From the NCBI GenBank assembly GCA_045116295.1, contig JBGULQ010000013.1, positions 67,745-131,744 on the forward strand: a stretch of 64,000 nt of DNA, given 5' to 3'. The notes under the pieces are model-generated. The model worked only from the letters and a program-made list of their open reading frames with translations, did not search any database and had not been told where the DNA came from. A program made the translations under genes and the position numbers. The DNA is from Alphaproteobacteria bacterium (GTDB lineage: Bacteria; Pseudomonadota; Alphaproteobacteria; RF32; CAG-239). How positions within the stretch are numbered: position 1 is the first letter of the stretch; each line of letters begins with the position of its first letter. Below are positions 10,495 to 54,738 of this stretch, one piece after another.

Positions 10495-10590
10495 TATGTG
10501 TTTTAAGGGTGCATAATATATTGTTTTTATTTGAAATATAGAGTATACTATAATACAGTGCTTTTATGGTTTGTGTATTGGTATGGCGAT

Positions 10591-11502
10591 ATGGCATTTA
10601 AAAAGTATTTCTATATTGTAATTGCATCATATTTTATGCTATTCATGGTGTTTCCTGCTTTTGCCGGCTGGGAAACAGTGGATATTCTTGATTTTGGTGT
10701 TATTGAAGTTCGCCAAACTACAAATGTAAATATGAATTACTCAGGAAGTATATCGGGTTCTAATTCAATAATAAGTCATAGCGGTTAGCATAATGGGACA
10801 AGTAGATATACCAATAACGGGAATTCTAAAGTAAAGATATCACATAGTAACACGCAAAGTGACGCCCCTTTAACTTGTGTGACAAACTGTAGTGTAGGCA
10901 CTTCGTGTGATGTATATGTAACGAGATTTAGATTCAGTCGTAGCGTAGCAAATATTCAGGCAGGAGCGTCATTTGACTGGAATATAGGTGCTCAAATTGC
11001 CATACCTGGACCTCCTTGCCAAGGTGTATTTGAAGGCACTGCTTATTTAGAAGCTACAGTTGATAATGAATCACAGACATACCCATTAGCAGTAAAAATC
11101 GTTATAGGTGATCTTCCTGCTATAAGTGTAATTCCGCAAGATGAGTTGGATTTTGGAGATATATTGTCAACAGCAGCTTCAACAGTCACCGTCGGTACAA
11201 GTGGTGTAAGGACATGCTCGCCGGCTTCGGTATGTGTCGGAAACCAGAGTAGTCGCGGTAGTTTTAGAGTTGAGAGTTCATCGAATACCGCTCAAACAAT
11301 AAGTGTTGATTGTCCGAGTGGTGCTGTCCAAATGGGAAATGGAAGTAATTTTTATATTGATTCTTTTATATGTTCAACAAGCAGCAACAGTGTAAGTTCT
11401 TCTGCTCCGGCAACGGTAAATGTCGGGGCAACATTGCATGTGCCACAAGGTCAAGCCAGCGGTGAATATAATACAACTTATACGATTACGGTTAATAACT
11501 AA
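10591..11502 (+). pseudogene. Secreted tandem DUF4402-like protein interrupted by one in-frame TAG (10786-10788)
   Basis: ORFs 10531-10788 and 10879-11502 share a frame, and I find no other stop between them. The N-terminus (ATG 10591) has a signal peptide (MAFKKYFYIVIASYFMLFMVFPAFA). Two domains each begin with LDFG and end with a G.Y/F.. pattern (ELDFGDIL...SGEYNTTYTITVNN), as in DUF4402. Confidence 0.6.
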
Positions 11503-11549
11503 ATTAATAAATAATATCAAAGATTGGTGTGATATGACTGGTTGGAAAT

Positions 11550-11816
11550 GTCATTCCTCGCATAGCGCGGTGCGTCCGTGCGTCAAGTAATCTCGGCTTT
11601 AGTGCTTTGCACTGTTTTAATATTTTTTAAAAAAGTTGTAGATCCCTGGACGATTTTGCAAGCAAAATCGAGGGATGACTGTTGTTTTTTAGGATGACAA
11701 TAAACAGACTAGTCATGCCTCCGAGGACGACTGTCCGAGGTCAAGGCATCTTCAATATTTTTCTTAAAAAGTTGTAGATCCCTGGACGATTTTGCAGGCA
11801 AAATCGAGGGATGACG
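11550..11816. repeat. Cluster of four GTCAT...ATC hairpin repeat units
   Basis: Units are at 11550-11592 (+), 11641-11679 (reverse orientation), 11712-11750 (+) and 11777-11815 (reverse). The ~64-nt segments 11617-11680 and 11753-11816 are near-identical direct repeats. Confidence 0.8.
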
Positions 11817-11848
11817 TTTTTATGTTATGATTTTTCTATTTTATACAT

Positions 11849-11874
11849 TAAAAAAGGGAGCAAAATTTGCTCCC
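11849..11874 (-). terminator. Terminator of the small secreted-protein gene
   Basis: Stem GGGAGCA / TGCTCCC (11856-11862 / 11868-11874), with a T-run on the minus strand. Confidence 0.65.
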
Positions 11875-11893
11875 TTTATAATAAGTATTGATG

Positions 11894-12205
11894 TTATCTT
11901 AATTCATACACACACTCCGGATTACCAACACCACATCCGGCACCACCTTGAGAAACCGGAACATTGTCCGGACGCTTGCACTTACGTGTTGCATTGGTTG
12001 AGTATACAGCAGCAAAAGTATTATTATTGCCCTCTACCGTTGCGTCTAACGCCTGTTTAGCTGTGTAGGTAACACAAGGTTCTACAGATTTAACCTCATC
12101 TACAACCGGTGGGTTAACTGGTGTAATTACTCTAGGTTTCTTTCTAGCATCAGCATTAGAACTCCATACCAGAACCAACGCTAAAATTAACAATATTTTT
12201 TTCAT
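11894..12205 (-). CDS. Small secreted Cys-containing protein, no family recognised
   Basis: ORF 11894-12220. GAGGAG sits 7 nt before the ATG at 12205. Signal peptide MKKILLILALVLVWSSNADA, 4 Cys in the mature part. Confidence 0.6.
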   Translation of the reverse strand: MKKILLILALVLVWSSNADARKKPRVITPVNPPVVDEVKSVEPCVTYTAKQALDATVEGNNNTFAAVYSTNATRKCKRPDNVPVSQGGAGCGVGNPECVYELR

Positions 12206-12294
12206 GGCCATTCTCCTCAAAAATAATTGTTAAATCGCATTATACGGCAATGCGCACGTATTAATATTGCTATTAATACTTATGTTTATATTTT

Positions 12295-12434
12295 ACCATA
12301 AACGATGGTTTGTGGTGAGCAGGATAAATCACAATTTTGATGACCACATTAATACACTAACATATTGAAAATATTATGTTTTACCTTTGCGGTAAGAGGG
12401 TAAAAAATTGTTGATTTAAACCATCGTTTATGGT
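12295..12434. repeat. 140-bp element bounded by perfect 17-bp inverted repeats (MITE-like or structured RNA)
   Basis: ACCATAAACGATGGTTT (12295-12311) is the exact reverse complement of AAACCATCGTTTATGGT (12418-12434). An internal 7-bp hairpin TTTTACC/GGTAAAA lies at about 12379-12407. Confidence 0.7.
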
Positions 12435-12484
12435 GAAGCACGATAACTGCCGTCGTTATGCAATTAACAAGGAAAAACAAGGAA

Positions 12485-12593
12485 GATCCCTGGAATTTTT
12501 CGACAAGTCGAAAAATAGGGATGACTGTTTAATTAAAAATGTCATCGCTCCAAAAGCGCAAGTCTTTTGGTCAAGCGATCTTCAATATTTTTT
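12485..12593. repeat. Second cluster of GTCAT...ATC hairpin repeat units
   Basis: Units are at 12485-12525 (reverse orientation) and 12541-12580 (+). They are followed by the shared TTCAATATTTTTT tail also seen at 11751-11763. Confidence 0.8.
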
Positions 12594-12633
12594 AAAATGA
12601 CGTTTATCTTTATTCGAAACGGCTCATCCGCAT

Positions 12634-12654
12634 AAAAAAACGCCCTAAAAGGCG
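12634..12654 (-). terminator. Terminator downstream of tRNA-Ser
   Basis: Stem CGCC/GGCG with a 7-nt T-run on the minus strand. The stem is short, so confidence is modest. Confidence 0.45.
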
Positions 12655-12666
12655 AATAATCAAAAT

Positions 12667-12757
12667 TGGCGGATGAGGAGGGATTTGAACCCCCGTTACG
12701 GAGTTACCGTAAACACGATTTCGAATCGCGCGCATTCAGCCGCTCTGCCACTCATCC
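12667..12757 (-). tRNA. tRNA-Ser (anticodon CGA), long variable arm, CCA encoded
   Basis: Reverse complement is GGATGAG-TG-GCAGAGCGGCTGAATGC-G-CGCGA-TTCGAAA-TCGTG-(long variable arm)-GGGGG-TTCAAAT-CCCTC-CTCATCC-G-CCA. 7-bp acceptor stem, anticodon loop TTCGAAA. Confidence 0.93.
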
Positions 12758-12834
12758 TTACAATGAGTTCTTATTAAAATCAAATCACAAATTTTGCAAG
12801 CCCTTTTTTAATAAGCACAAACAAATGCCTTAAA

Positions 12835-13716
12835 TTATATATTATTAATAAGGCTCTGGTAGTACATAGATACTGCTTTCACTCGCGGCAAATTTTTAGT
12901 ATTATTATTGGCAATCAGGCACAAATTGAGCTTACAATTAAAATTAAATTTATCAAACCATACCAAACTATCACAATTTGTTTTTCTTGGCATAACACCG
13001 ACGACCAGTCCTTTTCTCACTGCTTCACTTACCGCATAAATAGAATTTGATGCAAAAGCATAGTACCGCGCTTTGCCCAACATTTCCTTCCACTCACGAT
13101 TAACGCCTAATTTTCCAAATTGACAGGCAATTCTATGATTTTCCAACAAATCATTCATATCTTTAGGCGTACCGTATTTTTGCAAATATTTTTTTGACGC
13201 CGCCAATCCAAACTCAATAGTTTTATGTGACACCAACGAATAATATTTTGATCTTTCATCAAAATCCAAAACTATCGCTAAATCAGCTCCCGATTCTTCA
13301 TATTTAGGAGACTCTACACTTGTTAACGAGGTTATTTTAACATCAGGATATTCTTCAAAAAATGCACCCAATTTATCACTAAAAAAGTCGATTCCACCAA
13401 TCAACGGAATGCATATTGATACCTCGCCTCTGCACTTATTATTTTCAGGCCGCTGATTATATATCTGATCCAATATATCCGTAACACTTTGTAGTTTTTC
13501 TACCATATTTTTTGCGCAAACCGTCAATTTGCAACCGTTTGTACTGTTGACCACCAACTGCACACCCAAATTCTGCTCCAGATTGTGCAAATATTTATTA
13601 ATTGTATCAATAGATGTGTTGATGTTTTCGGCAACTTTACGCTTGCTTCTATACTTATCAACGGCTAACAACATCATCAAGGCATTCAAATTTTGCAAAG
13701 ATCTTTTTGTTATCAT
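12835..13716 (-). CDS. LysR family transcriptional regulator
   Basis: 293 aa. The N-terminal wHTH pattern (LNALMMLLAVDKYRSKRKVAENINTSIDTINKYLHNLEQNLGVQL) and a LysR substrate-binding-size C-terminus. Divergent from the lysozyme gene. Confidence 0.85.
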   Translation of the reverse strand: MITKRSLQNLNALMMLLAVDKYRSKRKVAENINTSIDTINKYLHNLEQNLGVQLVVNSTNGCKLTVCAKNMVEKLQSVTDILDQIYNQRPENNKCRGEVSICIPLIGGIDFFSDKLGAFFEEYPDVKITSLTSVESPKYEESGADLAIVLDFDERSKYYSLVSHKTIEFGLAASKKYLQKYGTPKDMNDLLENHRIACQFGKLGVNREWKEMLGKARYYAFASNSIYAVSEAVRKGLVVGVMPRKTNCDSLVWFDKFNFNCKLNLCLIANNNTKNLPRVKAVSMYYQSLINNI

Positions 13717-13779
13717 CGCATACCTACATGAACAACTTTTTTAAGACAATAAAAAATATATTTAATTTTTACAAATTGC

Positions 13780-13834
13780 TACACCTATTTTTAGTTGTAT
13801 ACACCCTAATTTTTCGTACACCTAAAGTTGTATA
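13780..13834. promoter_or_regulatory. Two TACACCTA-Nx-AGTTGTATA dyad-like boxes (candidate LysR binding sites)
   Basis: TACACCTAtttttAGTTGTATA (13780-13801) and TACACCTAaAGTTGTATA (13817-13834). Each has TACA...TGTA dyad ends. They lie just upstream of the putative -35 of the lysozyme gene. Confidence 0.4.
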
Positions 13835-13852
13835 TTTTGTTTCACAAAAAAA

Positions 13853-13881
13853 TTGACAAAATTTCTATTTTTTGTTATCTT
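13853..13881 (+). promoter_or_regulatory. Putative sigma-70 promoter of the lysozyme gene
   Basis: TTGACA (13853-13858), 17-nt spacer, TATCTT (13876-13881). Confidence 0.4.
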
Positions 13882-13910
13882 ACCCTTCATAAACAATTAT
13901 TTTGAACATT

Positions 13911-14675
13911 ATGAAGAAATATTTTCTATTATTTGTACTCACGCTCTGCACATTGTTGCAGGCCTTCCCGCAAAACTATACTCTGAGAAGCGTAGTCACC
14001 TACATAGAAGACGATGAACCTCCTCCCGAGGTAACACCGCAAGATGAAGAAATCTATCTCAATCTTGAGGATGAACTTCTCATCTGCATTGCTTATGTAG
14101 AAGATTACAGCTCTACCGCATATTTTTGCGGAGCACGTTGGACAATCGGCTATGGTTTGACCTATTATCCTAACAACTCTTCGGTCAAACGTCATGACAC
14201 AATTAACAAGTTAACTGCCCAAAAATACACAAAGTACCACCTGCGAAAACGTGTCTTTCCATATGTAAACAAATACATAAAAAGAAAACTTACCCGTCAA
14301 GAATTGATTGGAACATGTATGTTTGTTTACAACATCGGATCGGGCAACTTTAAAAAGAGTGCTTTTTTAAAAGCCGTAAACAACGGGCTGTCGCCTTTGC
14401 AGTGTGCAAGACGTATGACAGAGTTTACAAAATCAGCCGGAAGATTTGCCCCCGGCCTCGTTAAAAGGAGCTGGATTCAAGCCGCCATTTATTGTGGTTA
14501 TCTCTCTCCTTACGACTTGCTGGATCTCAAACCTGCTGGTTTTTATAATGAAAGTGTCAGTTATTTTACCCTTGGACGCGCACAAGACGGTTATTACAAT
14601 TATAACTTTTCAAAGCTACAAGGGTTTCTCAAAAAGAACAAATGCTTATCTCACAGTGTTTTTGACATTCTTTAA
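13911..14675 (+). CDS. Secreted GH24 (phage-type) lysozyme family protein
   Basis: ORF 13902-14675 (TTG). The ATG at 13911 gives signal peptide MKKYFLLFVLTLCTLLQA. The core EDYSSTAYFCGARWTIGYGLT matches the GH24 E-x8-D-x5-T / TIGYG block, except that the Asp position reads Cys. Confidence 0.75.
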   Translation: MKKYFLLFVLTLCTLLQAFPQNYTLRSVVTYIEDDEPPPEVTPQDEEIYLNLEDELLICIAYVEDYSSTAYFCGARWTIGYGLTYYPNNSSVKRHDTINKLTAQKYTKYHLRKRVFPYVNKYIKRKLTRQELIGTCMFVYNIGSGNFKKSAFLKAVNNGLSPLQCARRMTEFTKSAGRFAPGLVKRSWIQAAIYCGYLSPYDLLDLKPAGFYNESVSYFTLGRAQDGYYNYNFSKLQGFLKKNKCLSHSVFDIL

Positions 14676-14677
14676 AA

Positions 14678-14712
14678 CAAAGAACCGTTGCTCTCCGGAG
14701 CAACGGTTCTTT
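14678..14712. terminator. Bidirectional terminator between the lysozyme gene and groEL
   Basis: Stem AGAACCGTTGCTC / GAGCAACGGTTCT at 14681-14709. Confidence 0.8.
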
Positions 14713-14729
14713 GTTATGCATTTTAATAA

Positions 14730-16382
<1,653 letters not shown>

Positions 16383-53376: not shown

Positions 53377-54738
53377 ATGAAAAAAGTTTGTTTTTGCGGA
53401 ATTTCTGGCAATGGAATGAGTCCCCTTGCCCAAATTTTAAGCCTCAAAGGATACGAAGTTTACGGATCAGATCGCAGCTTTGATGTGGGTCGCGATGCCG
53501 ACCGCCGACAAGCATTGGAAGAAATGGGTATTAAAATAATTCCGCAAGACGGCAGCTGCATAACCGATGACATGAGCATATACATTTCCGCCGCACTTGA
53601 CGAGAACAATCCCGACGTTAAAGCTGCACTGCAACTCGGCCTGCCGATAAAGAAACGCTCGGATCTCCTTGCTCAAATATTTTCTGAATATAAATATGGC
53701 ATTGCAATTGGTGGTACATCCGGAAAAACCACTACTACTGCCATGATTGGCTATATTTTGAACACTCTTAACAAAAAACCATGCATGATAAACGGCGGAA
53801 TGCTCCGCAACTACGAAAAGCAGAAAGGTATCTCCAATTTTATATACAACACGGAAGACATCTGCGTTATTGAGGCAGATGAGAGCGACGGCTCTATTTG
53901 TAAATATTATCCGAATGTTGGAATTATTAATAATATTTCACACGACCACACATCTATGGAAAAACTGCAACAATATTTTTCAACTTTTGCATCACACGTC
54001 AAAGATGCTCTTATTATTAATTATGATTGTGAATTAACACGCAATATGCAACATGCAAACGCAATCACTTTTTCAACAACAAATCCTAACGCTGATTTTT
54101 ACGCAAACAATATTCGTTTCAATGCCGAAGGTCTTGAATATACTTTCCGCGGACAAGATTTCCGCTTAAAATTGTTTGGCGCATTCAATGTTTCAAACGC
54201 CCTTGCTGCAATTGCTGCCTGCACACAAGCCGGTATTGATCCCTTGACCGCAGCCCAAACATTAGAGGGATTTTTAGGCATTCAACGTCGCTTAGAAATT
54301 GTTGGAACTACCAAAACCAACATAACTCTTATTGATGACTTTGCTCACAACCCCAGCAAAATCGGCTCATCCCTTGGCGCCCTGAAAGAATACAACGGCA
54401 GATTGATTGTGATGTACCAATCTCACAGCGCATTCTCTGCCCAAAATACCGGACACGAAGTCGCAGAAGTCGTTGCTAAGACGCTTGATAAAGATGATAT
54501 TTTCCTCATGCCTGAAGTATATATGCTAAACCCTGAAATCGATAAGGGAATTACTGCTGCCAATATCATAAATGATATCAAATCTTTTGGCTTCAGCAAT
54601 GCGCATTTCCTTAAAACTCAGGAAGAAATCCATGACTTTATCGCCCAAAACGCTAAAGCTGGTGACCGCATAGTCATTATGGGAGCAAGAGACAACACTC
54701 TACCGACATTCAGCCGTCAGTTGTTAAAAGAGTTGTAA
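53377..54738 (+). CDS. Mur ligase family protein, MurC-like (UDP-N-acetylmuramate--L-alanine ligase type)
   Basis: 453 aa. GISGNGMSPLAQILSLKGYEVYGSD (MurC-type Rossmann N-terminus), ATP site GIAIGGTSGKTTTTAMIGYIL, and DDFAHNPSKI. Not in a dcw context within this window. Confidence 0.8.
   Translation: MKKVCFCGISGNGMSPLAQILSLKGYEVYGSDRSFDVGRDADRRQALEEMGIKIIPQDGSCITDDMSIYISAALDENNPDVKAALQLGLPIKKRSDLLAQIFSEYKYGIAIGGTSGKTTTTAMIGYILNTLNKKPCMINGGMLRNYEKQKGISNFIYNTEDICVIEADESDGSICKYYPNVGIINNISHDHTSMEKLQQYFSTFASHVKDALIINYDCELTRNMQHANAITFSTTNPNADFYANNIRFNAEGLEYTFRGQDFRLKLFGAFNVSNALAAIAACTQAGIDPLTAAQTLEGFLGIQRRLEIVGTTKTNITLIDDFAHNPSKIGSSLGALKEYNGRLIVMYQSHSAFSAQNTGHEVAEVVAKTLDKDDIFLMPEVYMLNPEIDKGITAANIINDIKSFGFSNAHFLKTQEEIHDFIAQNAKAGDRIVIMGARDNTLPTFSRQLLKEL

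Follow-up and report, generated by a model that had tools for sequence, protein, structure and literature searches.

We analyzed a 64-kb stretch of DNA from an uncultured ruminant-gut alphaproteobacterium (contig JBGULQ010000013.1; hereafter the window, with coordinates counted from its first letter) and focus on six hairpin repeats, units U1-U6, at 11550-12593. An earlier reading made from the letters alone (the sequence-only reading) had placed them in about 1 kb of non-coding DNA beside tRNA-Ser. The tRNA is there, but the DNA is not all non-coding: a transcribed open reading frame (ORF) for a secreted protein of 103 aa splits the units into clusters of four and two. On one side of it, U1-U4 are bounded by a DUF4402 gene, at its 3' end, and by the terminator of the small ORF; on the other, U5 and U6 are bounded by the upstream region of the small ORF and the tRNA-Ser(CGA) terminator. 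This small ORF is a real gene: it has a homologue in another locus (L024 in our numbering; 37% identity), which is also bracketed by units, and metatranscriptome contigs cover it. These contigs, from cattle gut (11910-12235 and others), cover the small ORF and not the unit clusters. The features are listed in Table 1.

Table 1. Hairpin units and neighboring features in the window
Feature	Position	Strand	Description
DUF4402 gene	10879-11502	+	
U1	11550..11592	+	GTCAT-TCCT-[GC-rich stem-loop]-TCA-AGTA-ATC; 21.1 bits, E=0.004; one clamp mismatch
Conserved 3' extension of U1	11593..11621	+	TCGGCTTTAGTGCTTTGCACTGTTTT; terminator-like hairpin at 11600-11614, then a T run
Tail of U2	11630-11640	-	TACAACTTTTT; U2 with tail spans 11630..11679
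U2	11641-11679	-	GTCAT-CCCT-CGATTTTGC-TT-GCAAAATCG-TCC-AGGG-ATC; z=-3.8; 53.3 bits
Solitary GTCAT stump	11694..11698	-	ATGAC on the + strand; within the conserved leader ATGACAATAAACAGAC upstream of U3
U3	11712-11750	+	GTCAT-GCCT-CCGAGGAC-GACT-GTCCGAGG-TCA-AGGC-ATC; 39.7 bits; inner stem with two internal mismatches
U3 with tail	11712..11762	+	tail TTCAATATTTTT
U4	11777-11815	-	like U2 except for the loop, CT; z=-5.0; 53.5 bits
U4 with tail	11766..11815	-	tail TACAACTTTTT; U3 and U4 stand tail-to-tail
Canonical terminators of the flanking genes	11853-11877 and 12641-12654		
Small ORF	11894-12205	-	103 aa; signal peptide; Cys-rich C-terminus; no Pfam family
Near-palindrome, two inverted copies	12292-12311 and 12418-12437	+ and -	22 bp, ACCATAAAC-GATG-GTTTATGGT; copies about 125 nt apart
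U5	12485-12525	-	GTCAT-CCCT-ATTTTTCGAC-TT-GTCGAAAAAT-TCC-AGGG-ATC; z=-4.5; 48.7 bits
U5 with tail	12474..12525	-	tail TTCCTTGTTTT
U6	12541-12580	+	GTCAT-CGCT-CCAAAAG-CGCAAGT-CTTTTGG-TCA-AGCG-ATC; z=-4.7; 44.2 bits
U6 with tail	12541..12593	+	tail TTCAATATTTTTT; U5 and U6 stand head-to-head
ATGAC with T-rich flank	12596..12606	-	head-only stump of a partner unit, or chance
tRNA-Ser(CGA)	12667-12757	-	

Direct reading of 11000-13200 and a pairing-aware scan placed all six units at the positions and on the strands that the sequence-only reading had proposed, and a covariance model agreed. This model, R1, was trained on 27 diverse units, all from other genomes, and was run over the whole window with filters off. 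Its matches are exactly U1-U6, five of them with E values of 2e-11 to 6e-8 and U1 with the weakest (Table 1). The next-best match, at 54238-54271 (E=0.21), lies within a coding ORF and has no GTCAT, and was dropped. On the opposite strand, the same hairpins score at most 10.7 bits, indicating that the units are oriented. A bare regular expression for GTCAT…ATC that ignores pairing shows no enrichment in the window (43 matches, 35 expected), and the matches of a version that requires pairing are confined to these six units.

The units share the plan GTCAT-N4-[stem-loop]-TCM-N4'-ATC and are 39-43 nt long. In five of them, the predicted fold consists of a 6-bp outer stem, a 3-nt bulge on the 3' side, and an inner stem of 7-10 bp (z of -2 to -5). 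The fold of U1 deviates from this plan. U1 represents a TCCT-clamp subfamily that, of all the units, looks closest to the Neisseria NTS motif discussed below and that recurs in L056, L058, L060, L097, L011 and L079; its type of 3' extension is kept between the window and L056 and is also found in the 3' flanks of L058, L060 and L097. The arrangement upstream of U3, in which a solitary stump sits inside a leader, recurs in L030 and L056. Short-read contigs stop within units: L001, a Logan contig from the same strain, ends in U6, and L114 ends in U2.

Upon comparing units from different genomes, we observed that base pairing is kept while the bases change, which bears out the earlier proposal of selection on structure. 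In the 27-unit alignment, 94.6% of the cells are paired, compared with 66.0% after shuffling (0 of 500 shuffles reached the observed value). Double-sided changes number 88 against 22.9 expected, none of the 13 pairs shows a single-sided change, and sliding the partner columns by 1-3 positions lowers pairing to 30-46%. The same holds for the inner stem in a set of 101 distinct units that were chosen by their frame and the complementarity of the outer stem (at least 5/6 pairs), inner-stem pairing never being a criterion. Here, the first seven inner-stem positions are 91.7% Watson-Crick, compared with 43.7% when arms are exchanged between units (maximum of 49.5% in 500 trials). Within the frame, GTCA is invariant in the 27-unit alignment and the fifth base is T in 23 units and C in four, three of which show the matching change in the partner; the pair T5-A thus also covaries, giving GTCAC…GTC. 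The GTC and the closing C are invariant across units, subfamilies and species. Wobble pairs are nearly absent (G-T pairs make up about 0-2%) and, as described below, the orientation of the units is independent of that of the genes, both of which argue that the pairing acts in DNA and not in RNA.

Contigs that resemble the window (98-100% identity) come from cattle-gut metagenomes. A scan of one genome per species with GATCCCTGGA-N12-36-AGGGATGAC returned 109 stretches. About 60 of these belong to metagenome-assembled genomes (MAGs) from gut or rumen labelled Alphaproteobacteria, Rhodospirillaceae or Rhodospirillales, including Tb.RUG.69, BRZ bins, SIG43, RUG410, RUG560, RGIG and UMGS241 (the lineage hereafter). 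By our own arithmetic, 19 fixed bases should match about 100 times by chance in 596 Gb. Matches outside the lineage score 24-28 bits with R1, compared with 30-54 bits for lineage units, and we treated them as chance, L066 excepted. A covariance search of the related genomes yielded about 170 matches of at least 30 bits at about 60 loci (about 0.5 Mb), so that the further copies anticipated by the sequence-only reading do exist.

Lineage loci hold up to 10 units per 8 kb and many subfamilies that differ in clamp and inner stem. Common to all are the GTCAT…ATC frame, a 3' tail, TTCAAATTTTT or TACAACTTTTT, and an A-rich 5' flank. In cattle-gut metagenomes that contain the window's organism, bins that hold units are 30-65x deeper than the unique flanks. 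The units are strongly intergenic (125/141, in DNA of which 15% is intergenic) and are found more often in convergent than in divergent spacers (30 vs 9, with 72 and 64 such spacers available). Relative to transcription, their orientation shows no bias, and both orientations occur in tandem gene contexts. Neighboring units adopt all relative orientations, of which tail-to-tail at a distance of 22-31 nt is the commonest. In these respects, namely intergenic placement, preference for convergent gene ends, mosaic arrays and a copy number that is polymorphic within a species, the family behaves much like repetitive extragenic palindromes (REP) and bacterial interspersed mosaic elements (BIME), as had been suggested. 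In the BRZ MAGs, another repeat family accompanies the units (L015:1290-1600 and L070:2000-2420), with motifs that include AAAGTTCGGAGAATGAGTCGTATAGAGTAATTTCTAGG and CCTAGCGTA-ATAGA-TACGTGG.

The identity of the partner gene provides insight into what the units may be. A search for ORFs bracketed by units led to a protein of about 96 aa with a GIY-YIG domain (Pfam PF01541, E=6e-15). Inverted units bracket its ORF in L069 (MAG Tb.RUG.69) as well as in L089 and L079 (both from a second MAG, T1900044927). The locus reads, in order, a unit (+), about 60 nt with the promoter-like sequence TTGACA-N16-TATAAT, the ORF, about 10 nt, and a unit (-). Of the two copies in T1900044927, the one in L089 is intact and the one at L079:184-475 (-) is frameshifted, its tblastn match being split over two frames. 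Units flank a gene of this family in L125 and L115-124 as well. In L066, a GC-rich Gemmatimonadetes MAG, a 43% identical homologue is positioned between GTCATCCCGAGCGAGCGAAGCGAGTCGAGGGATC, a GTCATCCC…GGGATC hairpin, and its exact reverse complement. The lineage protein aligns without gaps over 89 aa, at 46% identity, with a 94-aa ORF of Neisseria gonorrhoeae (BLASTP E=2e-27; tblastn E=1e-17). This ORF has NTS on its flanks and carries Y6, Y17 and E64, the residues mutated in the study of the Neisseria nuclease SsnA (Chenal et al., Nat Commun 2025; PMC11893778). By sequence homology, the unit-flanked ORF is an SsnA homologue. A relative of the L069 protein, P0001, is 91% identical to it. In the Protein Data Bank we found no close solved structure for it, the best match being UPF0213 proteins (E=0.02).

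The link between hairpins and ssn extends across the gene family. We fetched 80 metagenomic loci with ssn homologues, 76 of which had enough flanking sequence. A GTCWY-hairpin-C element lies within 300 nt of ssn in 64 of the 76 (84%) and on both sides in 42, and the nearest pair is inverted in 31 of these 42. Hairpin density is 3.74/kb near ssn, compared with 0.34/kb further off and 0.08/kb in shuffled sequence (11x and 45x). Among the fetched loci, the two-tier form with the TCM bulge occurs only beside the closest Ssn homologues (at least 66% identity; gut and rumen), whereas more distant homologues are accompanied by simple NTS-like hairpins, such as GTCATTCCCGCGGAAGCGGGAATC.

In Neisseria, NTS (CGTCATTCCCGCGMAVGCGGGAATCYRG) was described as an oriented extension of the dRS3 repeat and, together with 'Ssn-related motifs' (SRM), flanks ssnA, a GIY-YIG gene of 94 aa (PMC11893778). 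SsnA binds the motif as single-stranded DNA (ssDNA) in one orientation and cuts at a distance of a few nucleotides on its upstream side; double-stranded DNA, RNA and the reverse strand are not acted upon (PMC11893778). In N. meningitidis, cleavage depends on the three nucleotides 5' of the palindrome and binding depends most on the C immediately 3' of it, and the system lowers transformation by NTS-bearing DNA (PMC11893778). SRM were loosely described as 20-50-nt inverted repeats, and Neisseria NTS clusters adjoin surface-protein genes (PMC11893778). Written as GTC / AT-NNCT…AGNN-AT / C, the frame of our units has, as far as its sequence tells, the same determinants as NTS and SRM. We therefore consider it highly probable that the six units are SRM, that is oriented DNA hairpins whose GTCAT strand is bound and cut as ssDNA by a GIY-YIG nuclease of the SsnA family.

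In such a mechanism, the GTCAT-bearing strand, when single-stranded, would form a hairpin that is bound by the small, single-domain nuclease and cut a few nucleotides 5' of the motif. The GTC just 5' and the C just 3' of the palindrome would be the determinants of recognition and cleavage. Both the 6-bp stem on the outside (AT-NNCT / AGNN-AT) and the TCM bulge of 3 nt are semi-conserved, and the inner stem-loop would be free to vary provided that it pairs. Units accumulate as intergenic mosaic arrays, mostly at the 3' ends of genes and around genes for surface or secreted proteins (here the DUF4402 gene and the small secreted-protein gene), and recombination between shared frames would give rise to core swaps, tandem changes in copy number and truncated stumps. 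If Neisseria is a guide, ssDNA that carries these loci may be cut when it enters the cell or becomes exposed, which would modulate recombination at these sites. The ssn gene together with its flanking hairpins looks like a selfish or domesticated module resembling an insertion sequence (IS).

Several points weigh against this assignment. The published SRM pattern, HGTCWYN(0-2)YYVSBRHN(0-5)WNVSBRGN(0-2)RNCYNB, matches 0 of the 6 units and nothing in the window, because the hairpin is too long and is bulged. Membership thus rests on the shared frame and the gene association. In N. meningitidis, altering the palindrome while keeping the hairpin abolished activity (PMC11893778); it is therefore not obvious that one nuclease could serve all clamp and stem subfamilies. 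Nuclease activity in the lineage and a role in transformation or recombination would have to be carried over from Neisseria, where the phenotype rests on natural competence, and extend to this host by analogy. Finally, the 64-kb window contains no ssn gene, and two of the four metagenomes with this organism gave no ssn contig at an identity of at least 85%. In the other two, we found an intact-looking 405-nt ssn contig, about 89% identical to that of L069, at a depth close to that of the window's unique DNA (15.6 vs about 17, and 16.2 vs about 14-17). This match in depth hints that the source organism carries an ssn gene, and our inference is that its genome encodes an active Ssn outside the window.

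The lack of ssn in the window, together with the frameshift in one of the two ssn copies of the related MAG and the clamp mismatch in U1, could also indicate relics, repeats that Ssn seeded once and that are now kept by host recombination and replication slippage in a genome devoid of active nuclease. The copy-number change seen within a species, which is a simple tandem gain or loss between direct repeats, fits this reading as well. We regard this explanation as unlikely. The invariance of GTC and C across subfamilies and species argues for continuing selection, the two metagenomes with an intact-looking ssn contig at matching depth point the same way, and 81% of genomes with more than 200 SRM carry an ssn homologue (PMC11893778).

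A function at the RNA level, as intrinsic terminators, stabilizers of mRNA 3' ends or a structured small RNA, is very improbable, even though most of the hairpins are found downstream of genes, a T-rich tail starts 6-7 nt past the stem, and the 3' extension of U1 is terminator-like. Terminators would have the T-run directly after the stem, and the flanking genes own canonical ones (Table 1). SsnA does not bind RNA (PMC11893778). The lack of single-sided changes, the scarcity of G-T pairs and the occurrence of units in both orientations relative to the flanking genes speak against RNA as well, as does, more weakly because contigs do not show absence, the fact that the metatranscriptome contigs miss the unit clusters. 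A gathering-threshold Rfam scan and a permissive one of 11400-12800 returned only tRNA-Ser.

The chance is slimmer still that the units are REP/BIME-type elements mobilized by a REP-associated tyrosine transposase (RAYT, an IS200-like HUH enzyme), the partner favored by the sequence-only reading: they do look similar in being short, imperfect, oriented palindromes flanked by a conserved oligonucleotide, in having G[T/A]AG right before the stem on the reverse strand, and in their mosaic arrays, intergenic placement and convergent gene ends, but an IS200/IS605 TnpA profile found nothing better than E=0.67 among six-frame ORFs of 0.91 Mb of unit-bearing DNA (a negative limited by the distance of RAYTs from IS200 TnpA), whereas an Ssn profile recovered four flanked GIY-YIG genes in the same pattern-selected loci, and the unit frame is identical to the recognition frame of SsnA. 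The TnpA profile combined four solved IS200/IS605 TnpA chains with one IS200 TnpA sequence and was run on genome fragments. The tetranucleotide next to the stem on the reverse strand is GTAG or GAAG (TTGTAGAT / TTGAAGAT), which is less conserved than the GTCAT on the other strand. No transposase is a recurrent neighbor among 468 clustered ORFs. With regard to miniature inverted-repeat transposable elements, no target duplication was evident at the unit borders compared, a systematic search not having been made. Integron attC sites, Cas12a-like repeats (considered for the TTGTAGAT end) and pdif/Xer sites were rejected on inspection of the sequence, which lacks their defining cores.

The arrays themselves record how they change. 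Tb.RUG.69 holds a copy of the U1-U4 block (L056; 86% identity) at a position that is not orthologous; in that copy, a U5-type core replaces the inner hairpin of U2 and the frame is unchanged. L023 and L111, paralogous spacers within one genome, share flanks that are about 95% identical and carry different cores, together with an additional unit attached within the 3' clamp. In another species, strains are distinguished by a 104-nt tandem module comprising one unit, beside ssn. Solitary GTCAT/ATGAC stumps are found at 5.7/kb within 60 nt of units and at 1.85/kb elsewhere. The arrays thus turn over by conversion, tandem gain and loss, and truncation, and there is no clean cut-and-paste insertion among the changes seen. 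The sequence-only reading had proposed that two stretches in the window represent an occupied and an unoccupied target. The strings it quoted are present, but what they share on the left, TTCAATATTTTT…, is simply the tail conserved in U3 and U6; on the right they match over only about 10 nt (ATGAC and about six T-rich bases), and the outer flanks do not align. Because stumps of this kind are common beside units in this family, the 'empty site' is best read as the stump of a partner unit, or as chance.

These footprints allow a more specific proposal, which we put forward tentatively and consider doubtful. Recognition by Ssn may be confined to the outer frame, made up of GTC and the closing C with the 6-bp clamp and the TCM bulge, leaving the inner hairpin as an exchangeable cassette, and the footprints may arise when Ssn-nicked ssDNA is repaired from ectopic units. 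Such a mode of recognition would fit the core swaps within conserved flanks (U2 of the window compared with L056, and L023 compared with L111), the mosaic arrays, and the truncated GTCAT stumps, each of which is followed by an A-rich leader and a fresh unit. If true, homing-like gene conversion would spread and diversify the hairpins without a transposase, and a small nuclease that tolerates an arbitrary inner stem would be a naturally modular scaffold for cutting ssDNA.

Several features of the gene surroundings deserve mention in their own right. Part of the small ORF (11948-12055) shows raised metagenome depth, which indicates a multi-copy family. Neither its 103-aa nor its 108-aa version is on record. 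The pair of inverted near-palindromes (Table 1) lies upstream of the small ORF, and the same pair, at L056:5173 and 5296, precedes a small ORF that is unrelated. In metagenomes, 12164-12487 is covered about 10x as deeply as unique DNA, and the pair looks like a multi-copy promoter or operator module. DUF4402 genes stand repeatedly beside unit clusters, in the window, at L024:578-1108 and at L125:7325-10020, in the last case beside ssn itself. The copy in the window starts with GTG, has no evident signal peptide and is preceded by an ORF of 76-85 aa (10531-10788); the gene may be truncated or split. Beyond the tRNA, an ENA scaffold, L002, is 98% identical to 12770-14734 of the window and then switches, just before tRNA-Ser (L002:1900-2723; about 12800 in the window), to DNA of about 25% GC with two unrelated ORFs. 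We had considered it as an alternative junction and dropped it for this divergence into 25%-GC DNA; either the assembly is chimeric here or an island sits at the tRNA. GC skew is positive before about 12 kb and negative nearly throughout the rest of the window, with a cumulative peak at about 10-12 kb, near the unit clusters. This peak could mark a replication origin or terminus, or a switch in gene strand.

Taken together, it is well supported that a real repeat family had been misattributed to REP/RAYT and that it is an SRM family, distinct in its bulged and two-tiered architecture, from a lineage in which SRM are new. Ssn and SRM were described in 2025 from reference genomes; the present analysis extends them to an uncultured ruminant-gut alphaproteobacterial lineage and adds an architectural class missed by the published pattern, two-tier, bulged hairpins with variable inner stems, so that SRM counts made with that pattern are probably too low. 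That a single genome combines many stem subfamilies with an invariant frame shows what Ssn may require of the hairpin and thereby bears on the proposed use of Ssn enzymes as programmable ssDNA cutters. The core swaps and stumps are concrete, testable footprints of how the repeats spread. For annotation, the labels REP/RAYT, terminator or small RNA are unsuited to these hairpins.

The units share features with several known systems. Like the REP/BIME/REPIN-RAYT elements of E. coli, Pseudomonas and Stenotrophomonas (SMAG), they are extragenic palindromes with a conserved oligonucleotide and several stem subfamilies per genome, they occur as inverted pairs and in mosaic arrays, copies of the repeat flank the gene for the enzyme, and recognition involves an ssDNA hairpin. 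By contrast, the associated enzyme is a GIY-YIG nuclease and not an HUH/Y1 transposase. Ssn is not known to carry out strand transfer. The subterminal hairpins of IS200/IS605 elements resemble the units in their extrahelical bases, recognition of one strand, and cleavage a short distance 5' of the hairpin; there, the units differ by having no TnpA or TnpB and no defined left and right ends, and by standing alone by the hundred. With the dRS3 repeats of Neisseria intergenic mosaic elements (NIME), the units share intergenic mosaic arrays and a likeness between the core ATTCCC-N8-GGGAAT and the outer clamp ATTCCT…AGGAAT of U1-type units. Whereas dRS3 is a symmetric 20-bp repeat, the units are oriented by the flanking GTC and C and have a long, variable hairpin interior.

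The closest counterpart is the NTS/SRM-SsnA system. Both have GTC(A/T)(C/T) 5' and a C 3' of the palindrome of an oriented hairpin, both form intergenic clusters near surface-protein genes, and in both the arrangement hairpin-ssn-hairpin is inverted (in our case in relatives of the window's organism). The DUF4402 genes and genes of the outer-membrane-protein type beside the units parallel the NTS clusters at surface-protein genes in Neisseria. The enzyme in each case is a single-domain GIY-YIG nuclease of about 95 aa, with 46% identity between the lineage protein and the gonococcal SsnA orthologue. The hairpins differ in their construction. NTS measures about 28 nt, whereas the units, at 39-43 nt, are two-tiered, with a 6-bp outer stem, a 3-nt TCM bulge on the 3' side and an inner stem of 7-10 bp. 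Co-resident subfamilies of units have wholly different inner stem-loops, the units have a tail that is conserved (TTCAAATTTTT / TACAACTTTTT) and a 5' flank rich in A, and their host is an uncultured alphaproteobacterium of the ruminant gut.

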